Assembly: GCA_021815445.1 (NCBI GenBank) | Contig: JAKAGM010000001.1 | Span: forward strand, 235,527-299,526 | Origin: a bacterium | GTDB taxonomy: Bacteria; Patescibacteriota; Patescibacteriia; UBA10025 | Length of the DNA stretch: 64,000 nucleotides | Reading direction: 5' to 3' | Shown: positions 1,073-59,524 of the stretch, in pieces | How the letters are laid out: each line of letters begins with the position of its first letter | Numbering within the stretch: position 1 is the stretch's first letter | Notes under the pieces: generated by a model | What the model was told of the DNA's origin: nothing | Seen by the model: only the letters and a program-made list of their open reading frames with translations | Databases searched by the model: none | Program-made: the position numbers and the translations under genes

Positions 1073-2452
1073 TTATCCTGCCGTTATCGGGTCGCCCAAG
1101 GGGATGATATCAAGCGACTTTTGATTCGTCCAGATAACATTTTTCCATTTAAATCCGAGGATGGTAAAAGTATTCGATGTTGATATTGGACGCTTAGTGC
1201 CGTTAGATATGAAATAAATCTTTGGATTTCCTTTTGTCGCCACAAGTTCGCCCTCATTAAAGATGATCGGGTCTCCAGGAGCGTACTTTTGGATTGTCGC
1301 GTCATCAACGACAGTGAGAACGCGAGTGCTAAATCGGGACTTGAGTATTTCCTTTGAAACAATGGCGTGCCTGACGCCATTTTGGATAAATGAAATGGCG
1401 CCTGTCGCATTCGAACGGAACAAGATGCCTGCGGGGAAAGAACTTTGGAGTGAAATCGGTTCGGCATCGGCATAGCCGGCGAGGTCAGCGGCTGTTACGA
1501 CGATAATTTCTTCCGGATTAAAGCCCAGCTCCCTAAAAACATCGGGCGAGAGGATCCGGCGTTTCGTGTCCCCGTCGAGGAGGTAGGTATGCGATCCTGG
1601 AACGCGTACAAGCGCGTAATTGGGGAACTGGATTGGTGAACCTACGTCGTAAGCATCAATGACGTTTCTCGAAACCTGGATGACTTGGGATAATGAGTAC
1701 CGGGACAGGAATGAAGACTTACTTTTGAATAATCGCCGGTTGCCGTTCTCAATCTTCCATATCGCTCCCGACTCATCTTGCAGTATTGACCCGTCGGGAT
1801 ACTGAGGGATAAACCAGCGGTTCCACACTGTCCAGACCAGGTAGTTTCCGTGTACATGGGGGGTGTACGTGTACATAGCAGCTGTGGCATCGTTCAGGGG
1901 AGTCACAACATCACCTTCGCTTGTCGTCTTTGTTATACCCGGTCCCCACCCGGACAGCGTCATCCCATTGGATTCCAGTCCGGGAAGATATGTTTGGCGA
2001 ATCCTCCGCGCCGCCCAGTTGACTTGGTTAAAAAATCCTTTGTATGGCTGGATACTGGGGTCGTCGGTCGAGCAGGAATCGCAGACGGCGTATCCGGTTG
2101 CCCAATCAAGCTGGCGCGTCGTCGGTGAGGTCGAGGTAATCAAACTCTGCTCAACCTGCATGCGGGTAATCAAATACTTCGGGCTTATCTTCCAGTACTG
2201 TGCGGCGTCAAAAATGATGTCTGAAGCCCGTTTCGTAGTTCCGCCAAGAGCATTGGTTGTATATGTCGCCAAAGCGCTGTTTTGGGATTCCAGGAACTGC
2301 TGCACGCGTGATAAAGACATCGCGTCCTTATCCGTAAGGTCGTTATCGGATAGAATATAATTCTGATTGAATGCTGCCTGTGACAAAGCCGGAAAAAGCA
2401 CGATGGATATCGTGCAGAGGGCTATAAGCTTTTTCAGAATGCGCAAACTCAT
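1073..2452 (-). CDS. Secreted protein with four tandem ~60-aa repeats (possible cell-wall/glycan-binding repeats); function unknown
   Basis: N-terminal signal peptide (MSLRILKKLIALCTISIVLFPALSQA). The C-terminal half repeats the motif [YF][LF]x[ND]Gx[KR][RH]x[IF]xSxxxFxxxGF four times. Confidence 0.6.
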   Translation of the reverse strand: MSLRILKKLIALCTISIVLFPALSQAAFNQNYILSDNDLTDKDAMSLSRVQQFLESQNSALATYTTNALGGTTKRASDIIFDAAQYWKISPKYLITRMQVEQSLITSTSPTTRQLDWATGYAVCDSCSTDDPSIQPYKGFFNQVNWAARRIRQTYLPGLESNGMTLSGWGPGITKTTSEGDVVTPLNDATAAMYTYTPHVHGNYLVWTVWNRWFIPQYPDGSILQDESGAIWKIENGNRRLFKSKSSFLSRYSLSQVIQVSRNVIDAYDVGSPIQFPNYALVRVPGSHTYLLDGDTKRRILSPDVFRELGFNPEEIIVVTAADLAGYADAEPISLQSSFPAGILFRSNATGAISFIQNGVRHAIVSKEILKSRFSTRVLTVVDDATIQKYAPGDPIIFNEGELVATKGNPKIYFISNGTKRPISTSNTFTILGFKWKNVIWTNQKSLDIIPLGDPITAG

Positions 2453-4195: not shown

Positions 4196-5905
4196 ATGTT
4201 AACGCTCATGACAAAAAGAGTATCTTTTCTTCTCTGCCTCCTTTTTTTACTTCCTTTTGCAGTCCACAGCCAGGGAAGCGATACTTCAATCGAGAAGGTA
4301 GACGCCTTTAATGCACAAGTGACGCTGAGTGCCCAAGGCAGCATGACGGTGGTTGAGACGATTCAGTATGATTTCGGTACGAATGACCGTCACGGTATTT
4401 TTCGTTATTTACCCTACAAGTATACTAGGAACGGGTATGCTTACAATTTAAGGTACACAGTAAATTCCGTCACTGACGAGAATGGTGTGGCGTACGAGTA
4501 TACAGAAAAGAAATCTAATGGGAATGTTGTTTTAACTATAGGCGATCCCAACAGTCTCGTCTTTGGCAAAAAGACATATGTGTTGCGATATACGGTCGAT
4601 AGGGCTGTAAATTTCTTCAGCGACCATGATGAACTGTACTGGAACGCTACAGGAAACGGGTGGCAAGTCCCCATCGATCGTGTGTCAGTAAAGGTAATCT
4701 TCCCGTCAACAGAAAGGTCAACAATCAAGCACGTTTGTTACACGGGCGCTTTAGGGTCTGTAGCAAGTAACTGTATCGCAACAGTGGTGTCGGATCAGGA
4801 AATTTCTGTGGAATCACAGTCAGCTCTGGGATATGGGGAAGGCCTGAGTTTTGTCCTAGGTTTGCCTCCGGGGACAATAGCCCGCCCCTCGACTTTTCAG
4901 AACGCCCGGCTGTTTTTAATTGATAATTGGGTCTTTGCTCTACCAATCGTCGCGTTTATTTTTCTTCACATTCTCTGGCTCAAGAAAGGGCGCGATCCTA
5001 AGGTGCCCGGCACAATTGTTCCCCAGTACGAACCGCCGGATAACATGCCCCCTGCGGTTATGGGTACATTATGGGATGAAAAAGCTGATACAAGGGATGT
5101 ATCTGCCGAGATCATCTATCTCGCTACCCGCGGCTATATCAAAATAAAGGATATCGGTGACAAAGATTACCAGCTAACCCTCCTTAACAATGACACGTCA
5201 GGACTCGATTCTATTGATAGAGGGCTCATTGAAGCAATGTTTTCATCGGAAGGCGGGGTTGTAAAACTTTCTAGTCTGAAAAATAAATTCTATACCGATT
5301 TAGCCGTGATTCAAAAAAAGATATATGACACCCTCGTGACAAGCGGGTATTACGCGCAGAATCCGCATACTGTGCGTGCCAAATACATCGGAGTGGGCAT
5401 CGTACTGGCGGCAATTCTTTTTTCGCTCGGCGGCGGATTCGGCTCAATCGCGTGGATAGCCGGGGTACTAACCGCCATACTCATCATCGTTTATGGCTTA
5501 ATTATGCCAAAAAAAACGCTGCACGGCGCTCAGGTGAAAGAGAATATCCAAGGGTTCAAATGGTTTTTGTCGGTAACCGAGGAAGAACGAATTAAATTCC
5601 ATAACGCACCGGAAAAGAAACCTGAACAATTTGAAAAATTTCTCCCATATGCGATGGTTTTAGGTGTTGAAAAGCAATGGGCAGGCCAGTTTGCGGATCT
5701 CTACCGCCAGCCGCCCGGCTGGTATGAAGGAAATTTTTCTACATTTTCAGCACTTGTTTTTGTGTCTGCTCTATCTAATATGAATACGAATATGACATCA
5801 ACGCTTTCATCGCGCCCGTCGAGTGCTGGCGGAGGAAGCTCGGGATTCGGCGGCGGAGGATTTTCCGGCGGAGGTTTCGGCGGCGGCGGAGGGGGAAGCT
5901 GGTAA
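4196..5905 (+). CDS. DUF2207-family membrane protein with a glycine-rich C-terminal tail
   Basis: 569 aa. Signal peptide, a beta-rich N-terminal ectodomain, two central TM helices, and a C-terminal SSAGGGSSGFGGGGFSGGGFGGGGGGSW. This architecture is typical of DUF2207. Confidence 0.6.
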   Translation: MLTLMTKRVSFLLCLLFLLPFAVHSQGSDTSIEKVDAFNAQVTLSAQGSMTVVETIQYDFGTNDRHGIFRYLPYKYTRNGYAYNLRYTVNSVTDENGVAYEYTEKKSNGNVVLTIGDPNSLVFGKKTYVLRYTVDRAVNFFSDHDELYWNATGNGWQVPIDRVSVKVIFPSTERSTIKHVCYTGALGSVASNCIATVVSDQEISVESQSALGYGEGLSFVLGLPPGTIARPSTFQNARLFLIDNWVFALPIVAFIFLHILWLKKGRDPKVPGTIVPQYEPPDNMPPAVMGTLWDEKADTRDVSAEIIYLATRGYIKIKDIGDKDYQLTLLNNDTSGLDSIDRGLIEAMFSSEGGVVKLSSLKNKFYTDLAVIQKKIYDTLVTSGYYAQNPHTVRAKYIGVGIVLAAILFSLGGGFGSIAWIAGVLTAILIIVYGLIMPKKTLHGAQVKENIQGFKWFLSVTEEERIKFHNAPEKKPEQFEKFLPYAMVLGVEKQWAGQFADLYRQPPGWYEGNFSTFSALVFVSALSNMNTNMTSTLSSRPSSAGGGSSGFGGGGFSGGGFGGGGGGSW

Positions 5906-5918
5906 TGCAAGAAATCGC

Positions 5919-7148
5919 ATGAAGGTATACTCCGTTTCAGAATTTGTTACCAGTATCCAGCGGTATCTCGAAGATGGTCTCGGCGAAGTGGCCGTACAGG
6001 GCGAGATCGCAGACTTCAGGAAGGCCCAGGACCGTCTTATTTTTTTCGAACTTAAGGATAAAATCTCCCGCGTTTCTTGTTTTATGATGGCATGGGAACT
6101 CAAGACGATCCTTGAAGAGGGGATGGAGATCAGGGTCTACGGCAAACCATCACTTTTCAAAACTTCAGGAAGATTCCATGTCAGGGTGAGGGAAATAGAG
6201 CTTGTCGGAGCGGGAGCGCTGCATAAGTCACTGATGGTATTAAAGGAAAAGTTGGATAAAGAAGGACTTTTTTCGGAGGAGCGCAAGCGCCCGCTTCCGC
6301 GTTTTCCGGAAAAAGTGGGCCTGATTACCTCGCCTGATGCAGCAGCATATTCGGATGTCCTTCGGGTGATGAAAAACAGATGGTCAGGCGTCACGGTACG
6401 CTTCGTAGCTTGCGGCGTCCAAGGCGTTGGGTCAATATCTCAGCTGGTGTCGGCATTTAAATATTTCAATTCTGAGGAGCATGTTGACGTCATTATCTTG
6501 ACTCGTGGCGGCGGTTCGCTCGAGGACCTGCAAGCATTTAATTCAGAGGATGTCGCCCGGGCCATCTTTTCTTCACGAAGCCCCGTAGTAACTGGGGTTG
6601 GGCATGAGCGTGATTGGACGGTTGCTGATCTTGTGGCGGATCATCGGGCATCCACGCCTTCAAACGCTGCCGAGGTAGTCGTTCCTGAACGAAGAGAGAT
6701 TCTTTTTCAGATTGAACGTATGGCTCTCGATGTTGAAAAGAATTTTTTTGACCAGCTTGCTTCGCGCAGAGATGTAATCAATGAAGCTATGACGAGCATA
6801 GAACAGTACTTCCAACATCAGGCACTGCGTACAAGGGAGGCCTCGCTGCGGTTCGCTCATGCGTTCAGACAATACGAGTACGCCGTATCGACGAAACGCG
6901 ATTCTCTTGCTATGCTTACCATGCAGCTGTCGGACCGCATAAGGTTCAGTGTTCAGCGTTATTCAGCGCTACTCGCGCATCAGTATAAACTTCTTTCGTC
7001 GCTTTCACCGCAGGCGACTCTTAATCGGGGGTATAGTGTTACTTACAAGAACACTTCGGTAGTGAAGAGATCCGAGGACGTCCGGGCGGGAGACAGCCTT
7101 ACAACACGTCTTGCATCGGGAAAAATACATTCACGTGTACTACCATGA
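5919..7148 (+). CDS. xseA: Exodeoxyribonuclease VII large subunit
   Basis: MKVYSVSEFVTSIQRYLE... OB-fold N-terminus and a conserved catalytic core. The small-subunit gene follows directly. Confidence 0.85.
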   Translation: MKVYSVSEFVTSIQRYLEDGLGEVAVQGEIADFRKAQDRLIFFELKDKISRVSCFMMAWELKTILEEGMEIRVYGKPSLFKTSGRFHVRVREIELVGAGALHKSLMVLKEKLDKEGLFSEERKRPLPRFPEKVGLITSPDAAAYSDVLRVMKNRWSGVTVRFVACGVQGVGSISQLVSAFKYFNSEEHVDVIILTRGGGSLEDLQAFNSEDVARAIFSSRSPVVTGVGHERDWTVADLVADHRASTPSNAAEVVVPERREILFQIERMALDVEKNFFDQLASRRDVINEAMTSIEQYFQHQALRTREASLRFAHAFRQYEYAVSTKRDSLAMLTMQLSDRIRFSVQRYSALLAHQYKLLSSLSPQATLNRGYSVTYKNTSVVKRSEDVRAGDSLTTRLASGKIHSRVLP

Positions 7149-8255: not shown

Positions 8256-8285
8256 CCCCGGAGTACCGGGGGGCTTTATTTTATT
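8256..8285 (+). terminator. Rho-independent terminator: CCCCGG-AGTA-CCGGGG stem-loop followed by GGCTTTATTTTATT
   Basis: GC stem plus T-run read directly, 25 nt after the translin-like stop. Confidence 0.6.
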
Positions 8286-8303
8286 ACTCACCTATGGTAT
8301 ACT
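8275..8303 (+). promoter_or_regulatory. Putative promoter for the pilin operon with extended -10 TGgTATACT (8295-8303)
   Basis: TATACT at 8298-8303 with TG at 8295-8296. The first pilin ATG is at 8327. Confidence 0.45.
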
Positions 8304-8326
8304 ACGTGTGAAACCCAACGCAAAAA

Positions 8327-10759
8327 ATGGAGGAAAGAGGGAAACAAACACGTCATCGAAACATCGCCATCCTGCTTCTTGCGGGTATTTTGATAGTGGG
8401 AGCTGTTTTCGTTATGAGCCTGCTTGAACTATGGAAAGCTGCGCACGACGTCGGGGCATCCCAATCATTTATGTTACCGACTGCTTCACTCACGGCGTCT
8501 TTTACATTTGTTGTTGCGGTTGCGATTTTTTTTAGACTTCGTCTTGGCATAGTCCGATCTGCACGGTGGCACGGTAATGGTGCAGGTGCTTCAGGAAAGA
8601 GGGGATTAAGTCTGGTAGAGACACTCATCACCGTAGGCATACTTGCAACGGTAGGCGTTGCACTTCTCGGCACCCTGGTCTCAAGCTTTACGCTTTTGGG
8701 ACGGGCGAAATTGCGCGTGTTAGCGACGGCTGTAGCGACGCGGCAAATGGAGATTCTCCGAAATATGCCCTATGCAAGCCTTGGCACCACGACAGGATGG
8801 CCGAGTGGAAATATTTCTTCTACGCAGACTGTGAGTGAGGGTACCAACAGTTTCACCGTAAAGACCCGCGTGGATTATATTGACGACCCTTTCGACGGGA
8901 ACGCCCAGGGGACGATTCCCGGTAAGCCACGCGACACCGCCCCGACTGATTACAAGCGGGCAGAAGTAACCATACAGTGGGGTAAAAATGAAAGTGTCCA
9001 ACTTTCATCCCGTTTTGCTCCTCCCGGGGTCGAAGCTGACACGGGCACCGGTTCACTTTTTATTCACGTCTTTGGCGCCTACTCTCAGCCGATTCCAAAT
9101 GCAGATGTGCACATTACGAATACAGCGCTGACCCCGCACATTGATATTGCTAATATTACAGATCTGAATGGCGACCTGCAGATTGTCGGTCTTCCCCCGA
9201 GCCAGGGTAGCTATCATATTGTAGTGTCAAAACCCGGGTACTCAACCGATCAAACGTATCCGCCGTCGGCCCAGCTCCCAAATCCCATGCTTGCTGACGT
9301 GTCGGTGAATGCCGGCGATGTTACTCCACTTAGCTTTTCGATTGACGTGACAAGCACGTTGTCAGTACAGACTCTCGCTCAGGATTGTTCAAATGAGGCG
9401 CTTGTCAATTTCAGCCTTCAGGGCACGACGAAGCTCATGGGCACGAATCCCGATACGCCGAAATATTCTCAGACGCTTCAAACTGACGCAAATGGATTAA
9501 AAAATATCACTGACCTAGAATGGGATACTTACACGCTTCTTCTTCAGGAACCGTCTAAGGATATCGCTGGTTATATCCCATATGGTCCGTTGAATATCCT
9601 GCCGAACACGCAGACGACCCTGACGCTCATCCTTGCTCCGAATTCTGCAAACTCCCTACTCGCTACGGTTCGTGACGCAAGTACGAAGCAAACTATTAAT
9701 GACGCCCAAGTTCGACTCACTAAAACCGGATTTGATCAGACGAAGGTTACCGGGAGGGGGTTTTTTACCCAGACGGATTGGTCGGGTGGTCAGGGGCAAA
9801 GCGATTTTACCGATGCGACAAAATATTCTGCTCAAGACGGAAATATTGACGGGACATCAACGACAGGGCAGATTTCACTTTCCACAACGTCAACAACTCC
9901 TGCATTTACTGAAGATTTCGCCTCTGCTGCAAATAAAGATGCCAGCGCGACGACGGCGCGCTGGGACGGCGATGGCATTCTTGAGATTGCCAAAAGCGGT
10001 TCCGATTATCTGGCAAACGGCACGGCTCAGTCAATAAAACTGAATCCTACGAGCGGGTCAGTAATGTCCGCCACGCTCACCGCATCTGAGCAACTTCATG
10101 GACAGACTATTATTTACTCGCTTTCAAATGATGGGGGGAGCACCTTTACCCAAGTGACACCTGGCGTGGAATTGACTTTTCCTCTCGCGGGAAATGATCT
10201 TCGTTTTCGCGGCGACCTGTCTACTAGTGATCCATCTACTACTCCTCAGATTACACAAATACACATCGCATACACAGTCATTGCATATCAGCCGAGCGGA
10301 AACCTTGAATCATCAACATTTGACACAGGATCAGCGAGTGACTTTTCTATACTTTCATGGAACCCTGCTTCCGCACCGCCGGAAACTGGAGCGGGTGCGC
10401 TTCGTTTTCAAATTGCGGCGAATAATGACAAAACAACCTGGAACTATATCGGTCCTGACGGCACCTCGTCAACGTACTTTACGGCAAGCGGGGCTGATGT
10501 TCCCGCCATTCTCGACGGGAATAGGTACATCCGTTATCGGATATTGCTCGGAACGGTAGACAGTTTTTATACGCCTGTCGTCAGCAACATCTCAATCGGG
10601 TACACGTCTGGATGCACGCCCCCGGGGCAGGCGTTTTTTTCCGGCCTTGATGCCGCGACTTATACCATTGATGTCACTCAGCCATCCTATCAGCCTCTGA
10701 CTACTACAGCTGTCGTCAATGGGGACACGATACAGAGTATTTCACTTACGCACTTATAG
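8327..10759 (+). CDS. Giant pilin-like protein (810 aa). A 93-aa hydrophobic N-terminal region is followed by a class III (prepilin) signal G|LSLVE and at least three CarboxypepD_reg/PEGA-like beta-sandwich domains.
   Basis: KRG-LSLVETLITVGILATVGVALL has a Gly at -1 and a Glu at +5. SKPGYSTDQTY and SQPSYQPLTTTAVVNGD are beta-sandwich signatures. Confidence 0.6.
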   Translation: MEERGKQTRHRNIAILLLAGILIVGAVFVMSLLELWKAAHDVGASQSFMLPTASLTASFTFVVAVAIFFRLRLGIVRSARWHGNGAGASGKRGLSLVETLITVGILATVGVALLGTLVSSFTLLGRAKLRVLATAVATRQMEILRNMPYASLGTTTGWPSGNISSTQTVSEGTNSFTVKTRVDYIDDPFDGNAQGTIPGKPRDTAPTDYKRAEVTIQWGKNESVQLSSRFAPPGVEADTGTGSLFIHVFGAYSQPIPNADVHITNTALTPHIDIANITDLNGDLQIVGLPPSQGSYHIVVSKPGYSTDQTYPPSAQLPNPMLADVSVNAGDVTPLSFSIDVTSTLSVQTLAQDCSNEALVNFSLQGTTKLMGTNPDTPKYSQTLQTDANGLKNITDLEWDTYTLLLQEPSKDIAGYIPYGPLNILPNTQTTLTLILAPNSANSLLATVRDASTKQTINDAQVRLTKTGFDQTKVTGRGFFTQTDWSGGQGQSDFTDATKYSAQDGNIDGTSTTGQISLSTTSTTPAFTEDFASAANKDASATTARWDGDGILEIAKSGSDYLANGTAQSIKLNPTSGSVMSATLTASEQLHGQTIIYSLSNDGGSTFTQVTPGVELTFPLAGNDLRFRGDLSTSDPSTTPQITQIHIAYTVIAYQPSGNLESSTFDTGSASDFSILSWNPASAPPETGAGALRFQIAANNDKTTWNYIGPDGTSSTYFTASGADVPAILDGNRYIRYRILLGTVDSFYTPVVSNISIGYTSGCTPPGQAFFSGLDAATYTIDVTQPSYQPLTTTAVVNGDTIQSISLTHL

Positions 10760-10762
10760 CAT

Positions 10763-11365
10763 ATGAAAAGCGCACATCGGGGATTTACATTTATTGAAAT
10801 CATGATTACGCTGGCCATCGCTTCAATTGTCGCGGTAATGGTTTCTTCGTTCTACTCCGAAGGCTTGAGGATATGGAGAATGAACAAGTCGCAGATTGAT
10901 GCCCAAAACCAGGCTCGCGCGGCGCTTAACACACTGGTTACCGAGCTGAGGGAAATGGCACGCGCTGATAATGGCGCGTATCCGTTGGAGTCTGCACAGC
11001 AGAATTCGGTCATTTTTTACAGTAATGTCGATGCTGACTCCGCTAATGAACGTGTGAGGTACTTTTTGAGCGGGACTGATCTAAGAAAAGGGATTATCAA
11101 TCCAGTCGGAACTCCCGCTACGTATCCTGCCGCAAATGAGACTGTAACTGTCGTCGCAAAAGATATTGTCAACACGACTCCAATTTTCTATTACCACCCA
11201 GATACCTACACTGGAAGTGAGGCGCCGATGACATACCCGATTTCTCTCGCCGATGTTCGACTTATACGCATCAACCTATCCGTTGACACAAACGTCAATG
11301 AACTGCCTGCGTCAACAGTAATTGAAACAGCGGTCTCATTGAGAAACCTAAAAGATAATTTATGA
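10763..11365 (+). CDS. Prepilin-type N-terminal cleavage/methylation domain protein (type IV minor pilin/pseudopilin)
   Basis: MKSAHRG|FTFIEIMITLAIASIVAVMV is a canonical class III signal with F+1 and E+5. 200 aa. Confidence 0.75.
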   Translation: MKSAHRGFTFIEIMITLAIASIVAVMVSSFYSEGLRIWRMNKSQIDAQNQARAALNTLVTELREMARADNGAYPLESAQQNSVIFYSNVDADSANERVRYFLSGTDLRKGIINPVGTPATYPAANETVTVVAKDIVNTTPIFYYHPDTYTGSEAPMTYPISLADVRLIRINLSVDTNVNELPASTVIETAVSLRNLKDNL

Positions 11366-12843
11366 TATCGCTAGTTTGCCGTTATTTCAGGAAAAAATCG
11401 TATCCGCGGGGCGTCCAACTCATTACGGCGCTGATGATTGTTTTCGTTATTGGTGTCTTTGGCGTGGCGACCGCGCAATATATCACGAATGAATTTCACC
11501 TTGCCAGTTATAAAATTGATCGTGACACCGCAATGGAGATTGCTGAGTCGGGTGCGGAATATTACCGCTGGCATCTTGCGCACGTTCAGGATGATTTCAA
11601 AGATGGTACGGGGGTTACAGGCCCGTATGTTCATGATTACTATAACGCCCAGGGGGTGCGTATCGGCCAGTTTAGTCTCACTATTACCCCGCCGCCGACA
11701 GGTTCAACTGTTGTAACCATTGCCTCTACGGGATATTTAATTAAAAGCCCGGACCTAAAGCGCACGGTCACTATCCAAATGGGTATTCCGTCATTCAGCC
11801 AATACGCTGTTGTGGCGAATGATGTTATGCGTTTTGGAACGGGAACAGAGGTGTTCGGACCGATACATTCTAACTTTGGAATTCGTTTTGACGGGTTAGC
11901 CCATAACCTTGTGACAAGCTATGTTGCTCAATATCAGGATCCTGACCATGTCGGAGGTCCGGAATTTGGCGTACACACACATATTTCTCCTGTTGACCCA
12001 TACCCCCCGGCGGCGGCCCCAAATAGGCCGGATGTGTTTGCCGCAGGCAGATCATTCCCAGCTTCTTATGTCAATTTTACCGGGATAACAGTCGATTTGG
12101 GCAGAATGCAGACTGACGCTACTGCAAGTGGGATAGCATTGCCGCTTTCAGGCGTTAATGGATACCATGTCAAGATAAATCCCAACGACACCGTTGATAT
12201 TACGATGGTAAGCACATTGGCAACTTGCCAATACAGAACGGGCGGCAGATGGTATTCGGTAGCTGATATTAATTCCATCGGCTCTGAAACATCATTCACT
12301 TATAAAGGACGTTCTTCGCTGGGTATTCCCTTTCCCGCAAATGGCATTATCTTCCTGAGTGATGACGCATGGGTAGATGGGAACATGAACGGTGGACATC
12401 TAACGATTGTGGCGGCCAAGGACCCGCTGGCTTCCGGAACGGCGAATATTTTTATCAATAATAATCTTACGTACACGAACTATGATGGATCCGATACCCT
12501 GGGCTTAATAGCTCAACAAAATATTGGCGTGGGGTATTACAGTGCCGATATATTAAGAATAGATGCTGCGGTAATCGCGCAGAAAGGATGGGTTCGAAGA
12601 TATTATTACCCGCCGCGCACAGCGAGTACATGGAATCCGGCGAACTGCAACCAGTACGTTTATCGTAACACTATCACAACCTTCGGTTCGATCGCCACAA
12701 ACCAACGCTATGGTTTTGCATACACTGACGGAACGGGGTATCAAATACGAAATCTTACTTTTGACGAGAAGCTTCGCTTTGCTCCGCCGCCCTCATTTCC
12801 CACCACCGGCAAATATTCCATTATTTCCTGGCAGGAAAAGTAA
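11362..12843 (+). CDS. PilX/GspK-like minor pilin (493 aa)
   Basis: N-terminal ...YPRG|VQLITALMIVFVIGVFGVATAQY is a pilin-like hydrophobic segment without E+5, as in GspK/PilX. The start overlaps the preceding stop by 4 nt. Confidence 0.5.
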   Translation: MISLVCRYFRKKSYPRGVQLITALMIVFVIGVFGVATAQYITNEFHLASYKIDRDTAMEIAESGAEYYRWHLAHVQDDFKDGTGVTGPYVHDYYNAQGVRIGQFSLTITPPPTGSTVVTIASTGYLIKSPDLKRTVTIQMGIPSFSQYAVVANDVMRFGTGTEVFGPIHSNFGIRFDGLAHNLVTSYVAQYQDPDHVGGPEFGVHTHISPVDPYPPAAAPNRPDVFAAGRSFPASYVNFTGITVDLGRMQTDATASGIALPLSGVNGYHVKINPNDTVDITMVSTLATCQYRTGGRWYSVADINSIGSETSFTYKGRSSLGIPFPANGIIFLSDDAWVDGNMNGGHLTIVAAKDPLASGTANIFINNNLTYTNYDGSDTLGLIAQQNIGVGYYSADILRIDAAVIAQKGWVRRYYYPPRTASTWNPANCNQYVYRNTITTFGSIATNQRYGFAYTDGTGYQIRNLTFDEKLRFAPPPSFPTTGKYSIISWQEK

Positions 12844-31574: not shown

Positions 31575-32630
31575 CTAATTTGTTAGCGTATCCTCCTTGG
31601 TCGAAGGGGAAAGAACGTCTTTTAAGTTTTCGAGGTCCTCGAGAACTATTCCGGTTCCCCTAACCACAGCGGTCAGCGGGTCGTCGGTGATGTGGACAGG
31701 AATTTTCGTTTCATGTGAAATGATCTTGTCGAGGCCCCTTAAAAGTGCTCCCCCGCCTGAGAGCACGATACCGCGTGAGTAAATATCAGAAACCAACTCG
31801 GGGGGCGTATTTTCAATTGTTGATTTGATTCCTTCTATTATCGTGCGCAGAGACCTCGTGATAGCTTCCCGAATTTGGTTGCTATTGACTGATACTTCTT
31901 TCGGTAAACCGGTGATTAGGTCGCGACCTCGAATTTTTGCCTCAAGTGGTTCTTCAAGATCAATCGCGGATCCTATCTTTTTTTTGATACTTTCTGCTGT
32001 CCGTTCACCGAGGAGTAAGTTAAAATGCTCCCGTGAGTACTGAATAATATCCTGATCCATTTTATCTCCTGCCATACGCAGCGATTTCCATGTTACCACG
32101 CCACCGAGGGAAATTACGGCGATTTCAGTTGTTCCGCCGCCGATATCGACAATCATATTTCCTGAGGCGTCTTGAATCGGGAGACGGGCCCCTATTGCAG
32201 CGGCGACTGGCTCTTCAATGAGGAATACTTCTCTCGCTCCTGCAGACAGTGAAGCGTCCTCGACGGCTTTACGTTCTACTTCGGTAACACCCAGAGGAAT
32301 ACCGATAACAATTCGCGGTCGTGGAATAACCGAAAAACCCTCACGATGCACCTTCTCAATAAAATGCTTCAGCATTCGCTCCGTTACCTCAAAGTCCGAG
32401 ATCACGCCGTCGACAAGCGGTCGGGAGACTATGATATGCGCAGGAGACTTCCCTATCATTTTCTGGGCGTCGGCGCCGACTGCGAGTATTTGGTCATTAC
32501 GAGTGTTGATGGCGACGACGGAAGGCTCGTCAATCGTGATGCCCTTATCTTTCACGTACACCAGCGTATTGGCGGTTCCGAGGTCTATACCCATATCCCT
32601 AGATAATGTCCCGAAAAGTCTACTCAGCAT
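31575..32630 (-). CDS. mreB: Rod shape-determining protein MreB
   Basis: Actin-fold ATPase motifs DLGTANTLVY, DIGGGTTE and LSGGGALLRGL. Confidence 0.9.
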   Translation of the reverse strand: MLSRLFGTLSRDMGIDLGTANTLVYVKDKGITIDEPSVVAINTRNDQILAVGADAQKMIGKSPAHIIVSRPLVDGVISDFEVTERMLKHFIEKVHREGFSVIPRPRIVIGIPLGVTEVERKAVEDASLSAGAREVFLIEEPVAAAIGARLPIQDASGNMIVDIGGGTTEIAVISLGGVVTWKSLRMAGDKMDQDIIQYSREHFNLLLGERTAESIKKKIGSAIDLEEPLEAKIRGRDLITGLPKEVSVNSNQIREAITRSLRTIIEGIKSTIENTPPELVSDIYSRGIVLSGGGALLRGLDKIISHETKIPVHITDDPLTAVVRGTGIVLEDLENLKDVLSPSTKEDTLTN

Positions 32631-38896: not shown

Positions 38897-39910
38897 TTAC
38901 TTGCCAGCTAAAATACTTCTTTTGTAGGAATCCAGGTTCTCCAACGCTATGCCGGTTCCTTTGGCAACGCACAGGAGCGGCTCATCGGCAACATATGCAG
39001 GCACACCCGTCGCTTGAGTGAGCAGATTGTCAATGTTTCTCAGTAGCGAACTTCCGCCAGAAAGCACCATACCCTTATCCATAACATCGGCCGACAGTTC
39101 CGGGGGGGTCTCTTGGAGTACTGATTTTACCGCCTGAATAATTGCCGCAAGTTCGTCTTGGATTGCCTCAGTAACATCATCGCTCGTCACAGTAAGAGTC
39201 TTAGGGAGACCCTGAACGATATCCCTGCCTCGTACATCCATGGACATTTTTTCCTCAAGCGTCAAAGCAGAACCAATGGTAATTTTGAGGTCTTCCGCTG
39301 TGCGATCTCCTATTGCAAGTCCGTATTTTTTTCTGGTAAATTCCTGTATTGCGGTATCGAGTTTATTCCCACCGACACGCGCCGATGTATTCGCCACAAT
39401 ACCGCCGAGGGATATTACGGCAACTTCCGAGGTTCCCCCTCCTATGTCAACAATCATGTGACCAGAGGCCGAACCGATCGGGATATTCGCTCCGATAGCT
39501 GCAGCGATTGGCTCTTTAATAATATATGCGGCCTTAGCGCCAGCCTGGATTGTTGCATCTATCACAGCTCGGCGTTCAGTTGAGGTTATCCCGGCAGGAA
39601 CGGCAATCATGACTTCCGGATGGAAGAAACGAACACCACCGAGCGCTTTATTGATAAAATACCTCAGCATCGCCTCGGTAGTCTTGTAGTCAGCTATGAC
39701 ACCATCTTTCAACGGGCGTGACGCCACAATAGATTCCGGAGTACGGCCGATCATTTCCTTTGCTTCTTCACCAACGGCCATGACACGTTTATCGAGGAGG
39801 GATATCGCAACGACAGACGGTTCGTTGATTACAATCCCACGCCCGGGGATGTACACGAGTGAGTAAGTGGTTCCCAGATCAATGCCGAGTTTTTTATTCC
39901 ACATTGACAT
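38897..39910 (-). CDS. MreB/Mbl-like actin homolog (second paralog)
   Basis: DLGTTYSLVY, DIGGGTSE and LSGGSSLLRN motifs. 337 aa. Confidence 0.8.
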   Translation of the reverse strand: MSMWNKKLGIDLGTTYSLVYIPGRGIVINEPSVVAISLLDKRVMAVGEEAKEMIGRTPESIVASRPLKDGVIADYKTTEAMLRYFINKALGGVRFFHPEVMIAVPAGITSTERRAVIDATIQAGAKAAYIIKEPIAAAIGANIPIGSASGHMIVDIGGGTSEVAVISLGGIVANTSARVGGNKLDTAIQEFTRKKYGLAIGDRTAEDLKITIGSALTLEEKMSMDVRGRDIVQGLPKTLTVTSDDVTEAIQDELAAIIQAVKSVLQETPPELSADVMDKGMVLSGGSSLLRNIDNLLTQATGVPAYVADEPLLCVAKGTGIALENLDSYKRSILAGK

Positions 39911-57859: not shown

Positions 57860-59524
57860 CTAAGAATTATTAGGCCGTTCAACCCTCCCTTGAAAAAGAG
57901 GTTTAGTAGGAGGCTGCGGAGGCAAATTCTGATGGCGTTCTTTTTTACCAGGATCAGTCTGTGCGTGCCGTTGATGAAATGGGGTCGGTTTTCTCGCAAG
58001 AGCTTCCTTGAGAGAAATAGCCGGCTCTGTCGGCTTAACCTCTACAGGAGCTGCGTGAAACGACTGTGGAGAACGCTGCGGGGGCTTTGCAGGCCGCTGA
58101 TGCTCATCATGACGCGGGGTTTGCTCGTTCTGCCCCCGTGGTGGAAACCGATGAATATTCTTCTTTCCCGACGGTGAATAGGCCGTCTCAATATCTCTTG
58201 AAGCGATATTTTCCTCTTCGGCGGTAGCACGGTACACTTCATCCACCCCGCTCCAGCGTAAAATCTTTTCTTCTACTACACTCCTTGGCTTACCATAACG
58301 TTCACGAGAAACCTGAACCACTTTTTCACGGTTGCTCGTTTTTCCGGAAAGCGGGGGCAATGTGGTTGCAGAAAAAGGTTCCGAAGCAACCCCATCAATC
58401 ATCAATTTCATATACACGTTATACTTCGTGAGATTAAGCAGATCTTCCTCCACAAATGTAGGAAAGAACTCTTTTGCCAAAAACTCAGCATCGGCTGCCC
58501 CAATTCTAAAGCACATAATAGTGCCTACATTGCCGAAAACCGCTGGACGAACTTCTTCACTGAGTTGCTCGATATACTGATGCGCAAGTATCAAGTCCAG
58601 ACGGTATTTTCTCGCTTCAGATAATATATTTGCAAAGCTTTCAGTGGCAAAATTTTGAAACTCATCAACATAAAGAAAGAAATCTTTCCGCTCCTCTTCA
58701 GGAATGTCGACACGACTCATCGCGGCAAGCTGTAGGCGGGTAACCATCATGGCTCCCAAAAGGGATGAACTGTCCTCCCCGATTCTGCCCTTCGCCAGAT
58801 TGAGCAAAACAATTTTCTCGTTGTCCATCAGACTGCGGAGGTCTATAGTGCTGTTCGGCTGGCCTACGATATTGCGTATCAGCGCGCTCGAAAGAAACTG
58901 GCCTACTTTGTTTTGGATTGGCGCTATTGCTTCATTTCTGAACTTATCATTATACGCTTCATACTCGTCCATCCAAAATCCCTTAACGATGGGGTCAGTT
59001 ACTTTATCGATAACCTTGCGGCGATATTTCTTATCCACTAGGATACGCGCGACACCAAGCATTGTAGAGCCCGGATATTCAAGAAGTGCAAGTATGCAGT
59101 TATTTAGAATGTACTCCATGCGTGCGCTCCATACTCCCTCCCAAATTTTTGTGAATACTCCCATGAGGCCCGATGCTACGAGATGCCGTTGCGTCGCGTC
59201 CACACTTTCCAAAACATTAAATCCGATAGGATATTCCACATCCGCCGGGTTGAAGTAGACAACGTCATTAATGCGGTAGGACGGAATGTACTCGACAATC
59301 TTTTCGACAAGATCTCCATGGGGATCGACCACGGCCAGACCGCGTCCCGCACGAATATCAGCGATGATCATATTTTCCAGAACTGTGGTTTTTCCCATGC
59401 CGGTCTTTCCTATTAAATACATATGCCTTCGTCTATCGTCAATTTTTATGCCAAAACGCCGCTCCTGATTACGGTAGTTTGTCATTCCAACCAAAGTTAT
59501 TTGGTTTGTAGCGTCGTCTGCCAT
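57860..59524 (-). CDS. FtsK/HerA/TrwB-superfamily P-loop ATPase of the VirD4/TraD (type IV coupling protein)-like type. It has no TM segment and carries a long Pro/Gln/Arg-rich C-terminal tail.
   Basis: Walker A YLIGKTGMGKTT, Walker B DFFLYVDEFQNF, and LILAHQYIEQL. The last ~130 aa are low-complexity. Confidence 0.55.
   Translation of the reverse strand: MADDATNQITLVGMTNYRNQERRFGIKIDDRRRHMYLIGKTGMGKTTVLENMIIADIRAGRGLAVVDPHGDLVEKIVEYIPSYRINDVVYFNPADVEYPIGFNVLESVDATQRHLVASGLMGVFTKIWEGVWSARMEYILNNCILALLEYPGSTMLGVARILVDKKYRRKVIDKVTDPIVKGFWMDEYEAYNDKFRNEAIAPIQNKVGQFLSSALIRNIVGQPNSTIDLRSLMDNEKIVLLNLAKGRIGEDSSSLLGAMMVTRLQLAAMSRVDIPEEERKDFFLYVDEFQNFATESFANILSEARKYRLDLILAHQYIEQLSEEVRPAVFGNVGTIMCFRIGAADAEFLAKEFFPTFVEEDLLNLTKYNVYMKLMIDGVASEPFSATTLPPLSGKTSNREKVVQVSRERYGKPRSVVEEKILRWSGVDEVYRATAEEENIASRDIETAYSPSGKKNIHRFPPRGQNEQTPRHDEHQRPAKPPQRSPQSFHAAPVEVKPTEPAISLKEALARKPTPFHQRHAQTDPGKKERHQNLPPQPPTKPLFQGRVERPNNS

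Follow-up and report, generated by a model that had tools for sequence, protein, structure and literature searches.

The DNA analyzed in this study is a 64,000-nucleotide stretch (termed the window) of a Patescibacteriota genome (contig JAKAGM010000001.1 of assembly GCA_021815445.1). The gene of interest is a complete open reading frame (ORF) on its forward strand, spanning nucleotides 8327 to 10759, that begins with ATG and encodes a pre-pilin of 810 residues, of which the first 92 or 93 form the leader and the last 717 form the mature modular pilin. We favor, with moderate confidence, an interpretation wherein the product is a modular minor type IV pilin carrying a removable membrane-hairpin leader, with its N and C termini both inside the cell, that is cleaved at Gly93. 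As judged from sequence comparisons, the extension that creates this leader is real, coding and inherited. A leader of 92 residues with two helices falls outside all descriptions of pilin signal peptides, and the mature part is a member of an already described, common modular-pilin architecture. From these data we infer the topology, cleavage, pilus incorporation and adhesion role of the product, and roles as an adhesin and at the pilus tip are suggested by analogy to other modular pilins. The initial annotation also related the protein to an episymbiotic lifestyle; what is established of the organism is its Patescibacteria affiliation and a contig of about 0.88 Mb.

The class III signal of this ORF reads KRG93/LSLVE98, where Gly is residue 93 and Glu98 occupies the +5 position, and is followed by the hydrophobic segment TLITVGILATVGVALLGTLV of the α1 helix. 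The Gly or Ala at −1, the approximately 20 hydrophobic residues and the Glu at +5 that are expected of such a signal are therefore all present. The initial annotation placed this motif 93 residues into the ORF, behind two hydrophobic stretches, and both statements are correct as given. The stretches are AILLLAGILIVGAVFVM, inside residues 13 to 33, and FTFVVAVAIFF, inside residues 59 to 69. Indeed, three regions of the protein have Kyte–Doolittle averages above 1.6 when 19 residues are taken at a time, near residues 15 to 33, 50 to 70 and 99 to 120, the last of which corresponds to the pilin helix.

The leader can be divided into five segments. A basic N-terminal tail (residues 1–12; nucleotides 8327–8362) carries four Lys or Arg residues and two Asp or Glu residues and is predicted to be cytoplasmic. 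The first leader helix, TM1 (residues 13–33, IAILLLAGILIVGAVFVMSLL; nucleotides 8363–8425), has a 19-residue Kyte–Doolittle maximum of 2.93 and overlaps a helix at residues 9 to 42 in the AlphaFold2 model. A short loop with a net charge of −1 (residues 34–47; nucleotides 8426–8467) is predicted to lie outside the cell. The second leader helix, TM2 (residues 48–69; nucleotides 8468–8533), is marginal, with a Kyte–Doolittle value of about 1.9, and is modeled as a helix at residues 53 to 76. Finally, a basic linker (residues 70–93; nucleotides 8534–8605) ends in GKRG, carries six Lys or Arg residues and no Asp or Glu, and includes an ATA codon at position 75 (8549–8551). The model is disordered from residue 77 to 95, after which α1 begins and continues from residue 96 to 145. 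This basic linker looks like an ordinary leader peptide.

Reviews describe prepilin leaders as hydrophilic or neutral cytoplasmic segments of 6 to 26 residues (PMC4471445; PMC10191384). The claim that this leader lies far beyond the normal prepilin range is thus well founded, as 92 to 93 residues with two helices stand against 6 to 26 hydrophilic residues (PMC4471445). Leaders longer than the classical 6 to 7 residues have precedents in the type IVb and Flp pilins (approximately 15 to 30 residues) and in PilE1 and PilE2 of Streptococcus sanguinis (18 residues), which, like the leader proposed here, end in Gly and are removed on the cytoplasmic side. However, these precedents consist of hydrophilic or neutral residues, and membrane-spanning helices have been described for none of them.

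A homology search with the 810-residue protein returned 294 relatives, and the leaders of the best 120 of these were examined. Within this set, only one other protein, P0002 (encoded at locus L001), also has a long leader. It is 809 residues long and 57% identical to the window protein, begins with MEE, places its Gly at residue 93 and exhibits three hydrophobic peaks. The locus is fully syntenic with the window, where the order in both is LigB, WecG, XseA, XseB, an 85-residue gene, Translin, the pilin, genes of 203 and 496 residues (lengths in L001) and EamA. Because the neighboring proteins are just 47 to 67% identical, the two genomes must be distant. A global alignment restricted to the two leaders scores well above shuffled sequences (z = 6.3), and remains above shuffles that preserve the tail, TM, loop, TM and linker pieces of the leader (z = 3.5). 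On this measure, the two leaders share ancestry beyond a common hydropathy pattern.

Several observations indicate that the leader is coding sequence in the annotated frame. A leader of 91 codons stays free of stops in only 0.9% of base shuffles of the window sequence, and in 0.4% for the ortholog, and the other two forward frames over the leader include two to five stops. A codon-usage log-likelihood model, for which 30 window genes with Pfam support served as the training set, gives the leader +15 bits in its annotated frame and values below zero in each of the five others, which is similar to two stretches of the mature region. The identical 810-residue sequence is present on 10 contigs from three sources (ENA, Logan and NCBI), which excludes an assembly error, and P0002 is likewise known from two separate metagenome samples. 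We also considered that the extension might be an artifact of a frameshift or of an over-extended gene call, since over-extended starts do occur in this family. The proteins P0014, P0060, P0088 and P0100 have longer annotated leaders, and each has an internal Met directly before the motif. For P0014, whose annotated leader is 31 residues, a −10 box immediately precedes the internal Met, which places the real start at MRTPEG and marks the long leader as an over-extended call. No such internal start is available in the window ORF, the ortholog has the same structure, and given the repeated recovery of both sequences the probability of an artifact is negligible. This explanation was rejected as far as sequence data allow.

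The other relatives provide the context for the origin of the extension. Among the best 120, all that carry a source name are Patescibacteria, and the family occurs in forms of approximately 600 and 730 residues. Many of those listed are annotated as prepilin-type proteins. Their leaders are nearly all about 6 to 18 residues long (more than 100 relatives). In a neighbor-joining tree of the mature region, the window protein and P0002 are sisters nested among short-leader proteins, and the extension is therefore derived. The short-leader orthologs of approximately 730 residues (for example P0003, P0004 and P0008) are 46 to 52% identical to the window protein across the mature region, and share with it the domain order, two invariant cysteines and a three-gene cassette described below. 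They differ in that their leaders are 13 to 18 residues long and their ATG lies 6 to 10 nucleotides past a −10 box, whereas the ATG of the window ORF lies 92 codons upstream of the motif and 23 nucleotides past its box.

Searches for the source of the added segment returned no further members. When 1.84 billion representative proteins were searched with a profile, there were no hits, and genome and metagenome scans for relatives of the leader only re-found the P0002 contigs. Comparison of the leader with Pfam and NCBIfam gave just subthreshold noise from models of membrane proteins (ETR1_N, DUF805 and SLATT_1). A duplication of the pilin helix or a copy of a paralog was rejected as its source, as only noise-level matches were present in the window and the fetched loci. 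Fusion with a separate two-helix gene was also rejected because none is located upstream of the short-leader relatives, where the neighbors are divergent genes (an ABC transporter or an aminotransferase) or a soluble 93-residue ORF.

Sequence features upstream of the ORF are consistent with initiation at ATG 8327. An in-frame stop codon at 8309 keeps the ORF from extending further upstream, and no start codon comes between this stop and ATG 8327. Canonical in-frame starts in the leader occur at codons 1, 22, 24, 30 and 49, and between codon 49 and Gly93 the only near-start codons are ATT 67 and ATA 75. The initial annotation stated that no in-frame ATG, GTG or TTG lies between the second hydrophobic stretch and the motif, and this holds for the region past codon 49. 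The preceding Translin-like gene is closed by a terminator-like hairpin (CCCCGG-AGTA-CCGGGG; 8256–8271) and T-run (8256–8281 in total, forward strand), which suggests that the pilin gene begins its own transcription unit. Between this hairpin and the ORF, an extended −10-like box (TGGTATACT; 8295–8303, forward strand) was identified by reading the sequence, and ends 23 nucleotides before the ATG. At L001, a TTGATA-17-TATACT arrangement with TG (10 of 12 matches) ends 20 nucleotides before the ATG of P0002. A two-hexamer promoter scan returned no site in the window itself. TATACT was rejected as a general promoter mark because its overall count equals expectation, and it is weighed as evidence only for where it lies and for being conserved in the ortholog. 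TATACT is also positioned 7 to 23 nucleotides ahead of several window genes that appear to be first in their transcription units (4196, 8327, and on the reverse strand 38897, 54070 and 60938).

The predicted pairing of window gene starts with the anti-Shine–Dalgarno sequence has a median of −0.45 kcal/mol over 40 starts, indicating that this genome is very poor in Shine–Dalgarno sequences. The absence of a ribosome-binding site before 8327 is consequently normal, as the genome hardly uses this signal, and for the same reason Shine–Dalgarno strength was discarded as a criterion for choosing among start codons. We would therefore expect the first AUG after the promoter-like box, which is ATG 8327, to serve as the start. 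In the short-leader genes a −10 box (TGGCATACT, TGGTATAAT or TATACT) ends 6 to 10 nucleotides before the ATG. These boxes are located at approximately 4975 to 5000 in both L003 and L004, 5095 to 5120 in L006 (where the ATG is that of an internal Met), 380 to 400 in L012 and 370 to 400 in L013. The mRNAs of these short-leader pilins are probably leaderless or near-leaderless.

These features bear on the possibility that the true start is internal and noncanonical, at ATA 75 in the window and at GTG 71 or ATT 76 in the ortholog. Such a start would yield a leader of 18 to 23 residues and leave the upstream 74 codons untranslated or used for a minor isoform. The sequence I75-V76-R77 (ATA GTC CGA; 8549–8557) does resemble the M-V-R (ATG GTA CGG) start of the nearest short-leader relative, and is separated from Gly by 19 codons rather than 18. 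Weak −10-like hexamers are also located just upstream (TAGACT in the window and TATCAT in L001), but T-rich codons for hydrophobic residues generate such hexamers by chance, whereas the strong and conserved −10 box precedes the long ORF. The candidate near-cognate codons are not aligned between the two orthologs, the leaderless or near-leaderless mRNAs of the relatives use a true ATG, and the upstream frame is open, coding-like and hydrophobic in both genomes. Moreover, ATA and ATT are very poor initiators. We consider initiation within the leader to be quite unlikely. The initial annotation had named an internal start just before KRG as the finding that would overturn its proposal, and such a start is unsupported, given that there is no canonical or conserved near-cognate codon and that the box precedes the long ORF in the window and at L001 alike. 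A more speculative view of the same similarity is that the basic linker may be an old leader that has lost its ATG, wherein ATA 75 would be a fossil of the ancestral start.

The family assignment of the mature protein is well supported. In an alignment of 70 sequences E98 is invariant and G93 is conserved in at least 90%. Type IV pilins of known structure are hit by a family profile in their N-terminal helices, with Geobacter PilA-N at E = 2e-4 and further hits to PilA and MshA. These results, along with the minor-pilin genes that follow, uphold the annotated membership in the pilin family. The α1 helix (residues 94–145, with Glu98 at +5; nucleotides 8606–8761) is defined by the alignment, the AlphaFold2 model, the subthreshold PF07963 match and the profile comparison with PDB entries. 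It is followed by a pilin head that is modeled as a four-stranded antiparallel sheet (residues 146–240; nucleotides 8762–9046). The AlphaFold2 model (mean pLDDT of 87.9) depicts a classical pilin module, which as excised consists of a 51-residue helix and four strands, and then a chain of all-β modules past residue 240. When the pilin module was submitted to Foldseek, the top match was a Thermus competence pilin with E = 0.4, which is not significant. The whole model matched generic tandem β-sandwich stalk domains of Gram-positive pilins and adhesins; such matches would fit a protein displayed for binding or as a spacer but do not prove either role.

The module chain begins with a CarboxypepD_reg β-sandwich (residues 248–338; nucleotides 9068–9340) that scores 51 bits in Pfam against a cutoff of 32.3. 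Further β-sandwich modules, supported by the alignment, the AlphaFold2 model and the fold search, occupy residues 343 to 521 and include Cys354 (nucleotides 9353–9889). A β-rich domain of approximately 129 residues (522–650; nucleotides 9890–10276) is present in the 730-residue family forms and not in the 600-residue forms. The chain ends with a C-terminal β domain (residues 651–810; nucleotides 10277–10756) that includes Cys763 and a PEGA-like end (residues 753–807; 19.3 bits, below the cutoff of 20.8). The annotation had proposed at least three CarboxypepD_reg/PEGA-like modules joined by Thr/Ser-rich linkers. One CarboxypepD_reg domain and the all-β chain were recovered, but the PEGA match is subthreshold and the remaining modules have no Pfam support. 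The proposed linkers were not borne out, as the one clear Ser/Thr-rich stretch, at residues 507 to 533, is modeled with high confidence as β-strands.

The protein has just two cysteines, Cys354 (9386–9388) and Cys763 (10613–10615), neither of which varies across the 70 family members. This conservation suggests a long-range disulfide between the second β-sandwich and the C-terminal domain. One relative, P0054, is 1201 residues long and has additional domains.

Modular pilins are defined by a pilin module that precedes a domain without a specific link to pilus biology, and the CarboxypepD_reg domain at residues 248 to 338 provides such a domain here. The combination of a pilin with PF13620 is among the commonest modular-pilin architectures and has a representative in Candidatus Magasanikbacteria (Raynaud et al. 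2021, PMC8179133). A Magasanikbacteria protein, P0059, is among the direct relatives of the window ORF. Modular pilins that combine IPR012902 with PF13620, for which S. sanguinis PilB and PilC are the paradigm, have in common with the window protein Gly at −1, Glu at +5, a long α1 and, as modeled here, a small β-sheet head (PMC8179133). Both groups also add β-sandwich modules with a carbohydrate-binding-like fold and are encoded beside other minor pilins (PMC8179133). The difference lies in the leader, which is short and hydrophilic in those proteins (seven residues in PilB) as opposed to 92 residues with two membrane helices. A second comparison is with PilX1 and PilX2 of Saccharibacteria, which are large minor pilins with extra C-terminal domains, proposed to be tip adhesins, that have been noted to have “non-canonical” signal peptides (PMC11623550). 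PilX1 and PilX2 resemble the window protein by description; their added domains are jelly-roll and β-propeller, and they are unusual in lacking a predicted PilD site, not in having gained a membrane hairpin.

The pilin ORF opens a cassette of three minor-pilin genes that is conserved in Patescibacteria. The second gene (10763–11365, forward strand) encodes a 200-residue pseudopilin with a seven-residue leader, MKSAHRG/FTFIE, that matches PF07963 (31.5 bits) and TIGR02532 (29.9 bits). The third (11362–12843, forward strand) encodes a 493-residue protein with a PilX_N/GspK-like N-terminal helix that has no Glu at position 5 (PilX_N, 22.1 bits, below threshold). The order of a large pilin, an N_methyl protein of approximately 200 residues and a PilX_N-like protein of approximately 490 residues is found in the window (8327–12843) and at L001, L003 and L004. 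The cassette at L006 is looser, with partners of 220 and 705 residues that have no Pfam hits on record. At L004 the cassette adjoins genes for T2SSE, T2SSF, PilM, PilN and PilO.

We envision that the common ancestor of the two long-leader genomes gained approximately 74 codons upstream of what appears to be the old leader. Translation from ATG 8327 would then place five pieces ahead of the pilin helix, namely a basic N-terminal tail, TM1 and TM2 with a short outside loop between them, and a basic linker of 23 residues that ends in GKRG. The Lys plus Arg counts are four and six in the tail, one and one in the loop, and six and five in the linker of the window protein and P0002, respectively, and both proteins thereby conform to the positive-inside pattern. 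With an even number of helices ahead of the motif, the chain would return to the cytoplasm, and the Gly93–Leu94 bond would lie on the cytoplasmic face, where prepilin peptidases are known to cut (PMC10191384). The β-rich 717 residues, including the two invariant cysteines, would be placed outside the cell. After cleavage at Gly93, the first 93 residues would stay in the membrane as a hairpin, and the other 717 would be freed as a normal pilin. This pilin would join the pilus together with its two cassette partners, probably close to the tip.

A number of findings weigh against this removable-hairpin model. The rough Hessa sums are −4.4 for TM1 and −0.2 for TM2 in the window protein (8363–8533), and 0.0 and −4.7 in L001 (6040–6213). 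In each ortholog one leader helix is thus strong and the other marginal, with the two positions swapped between them; the presence of a marginal helix makes the hairpin topology insecure. Identity between the two leaders is 33% compared to 74% for α1, the most conserved part of the protein, which implies that constraint on the leader is weak. The long leader is confined to two lineages, which leaves one comparison from which to judge its conservation. No gene for PilB, PilC or PilD (Peptidase_A24) was found among the scanned ORFs of the 64-kb window. Many relatives carry the PF07963 (N_methyl) match, but the window protein and P0002 score 17.5 and 11.4 bits, respectively, both below the cutoff of 21.2. 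Furthermore, no prepilin peptidase is known to process a substrate with a membrane-embedded leader (PMC10191384; PMC4471445).

Some of these same findings would be explained if the translated product kept its extension uncleaved and served as a surface protein anchored in the membrane by three helices, namely a pilin-derived adhesin that acts outside of any pilus. Such an anchor would account for the weaker prepilin motif, for a +1 residue that is Leu or Ile and not Phe, for the lack of pilus machinery genes among the scanned ORFs, and for a membrane-embedded leader that is undescribed for any peptidase substrate. However, Gly at −1 and Glu at +5 are retained in both orthologs, and it is α1 that has changed least. 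In addition, the two minor-pilin partners are kept in order, and the linker before Gly93 is basic and disordered like a normal leader. We judge an unprocessed anchor to be unlikely.

If the leader is indeed removed, then the hairpin left behind is most likely a tolerated pro-segment without a specific function, constrained mainly to remain a membrane hairpin, because it diverges rapidly. An alternative is that the hairpin has its own function. The ORF would then encode a two-part precursor from which the peptidase separates the pilin from a small two-helix membrane protein that acts as a machinery accessory or a pilin-release gate. In favor of such a function, the leader has been kept across a deep divergence (neighboring proteins are 47–67% identical) without any change in length, and the two copies are more alike than the hydropathy pattern would impose. 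Against it stand the low leader identity and the limitation of the trait to two lineages, and no related protein or domain was recovered in the profile, Pfam, NCBIfam or locus searches. Relatives also lack a separate gene of this kind beside the cassette. We therefore view a functional hairpin as unlikely. There is correspondingly little chance that an internal peptidase site placed after two membrane helices leaves behind a hairpin that holds the tip pilin until a signal arrives, or that serves the pilus machine.

The implications of the removable-hairpin model concern how pilins are recognized. By definition, and in tools that search for them (for example PilFind, SignalP and PF07963), class III signal peptides are short, hydrophilic and located at the extreme N terminus. 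The leader described here is a clear exception to this textbook definition, albeit a narrow one with no sign yet of its own function. If it is processed, then prepilin peptidases accept membrane-anchored leaders, and the rules used to find pilins miss such proteins. If the two-product precursor were true, it would represent the first membrane-embedded pilin pro-peptide and would widen the substrate range of the peptidase. The long- and short-leader orthologs also constitute a clean natural pair for the effects of leader length and topology on processing. The reach of these implications is limited to two uncultivated lineages and a fast-evolving segment of a protein whose mature part is of a described type.

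Other genes of the window also merit mention. The XseA ORF (5823–7148; GTG start, 441 residues) overlaps the preceding DUF2207 gene (4196–5905) by 83 nucleotides. Its ortholog is 410 residues long, and the real start is probably an internal Met (MKVYSV...). A 459-residue ORF (1073–2452, reverse strand) has no Pfam match, and its position is kept in the ortholog locus (446 residues; L001 388–1728). Two full-length MreB paralogs are encoded on the reverse strand at 31575 to 32630 and 38897 to 39910. One of the paralogs adjoins MreC and PBP2, and the other adjoins a DUF4012 protein and glycosyltransferases. A TrwB/VirD4-like coupling ATPase (57860–59524, reverse strand; TrwB_AAD_bind, 48.8 bits) is adjoined by a 461-residue protein without a family match.

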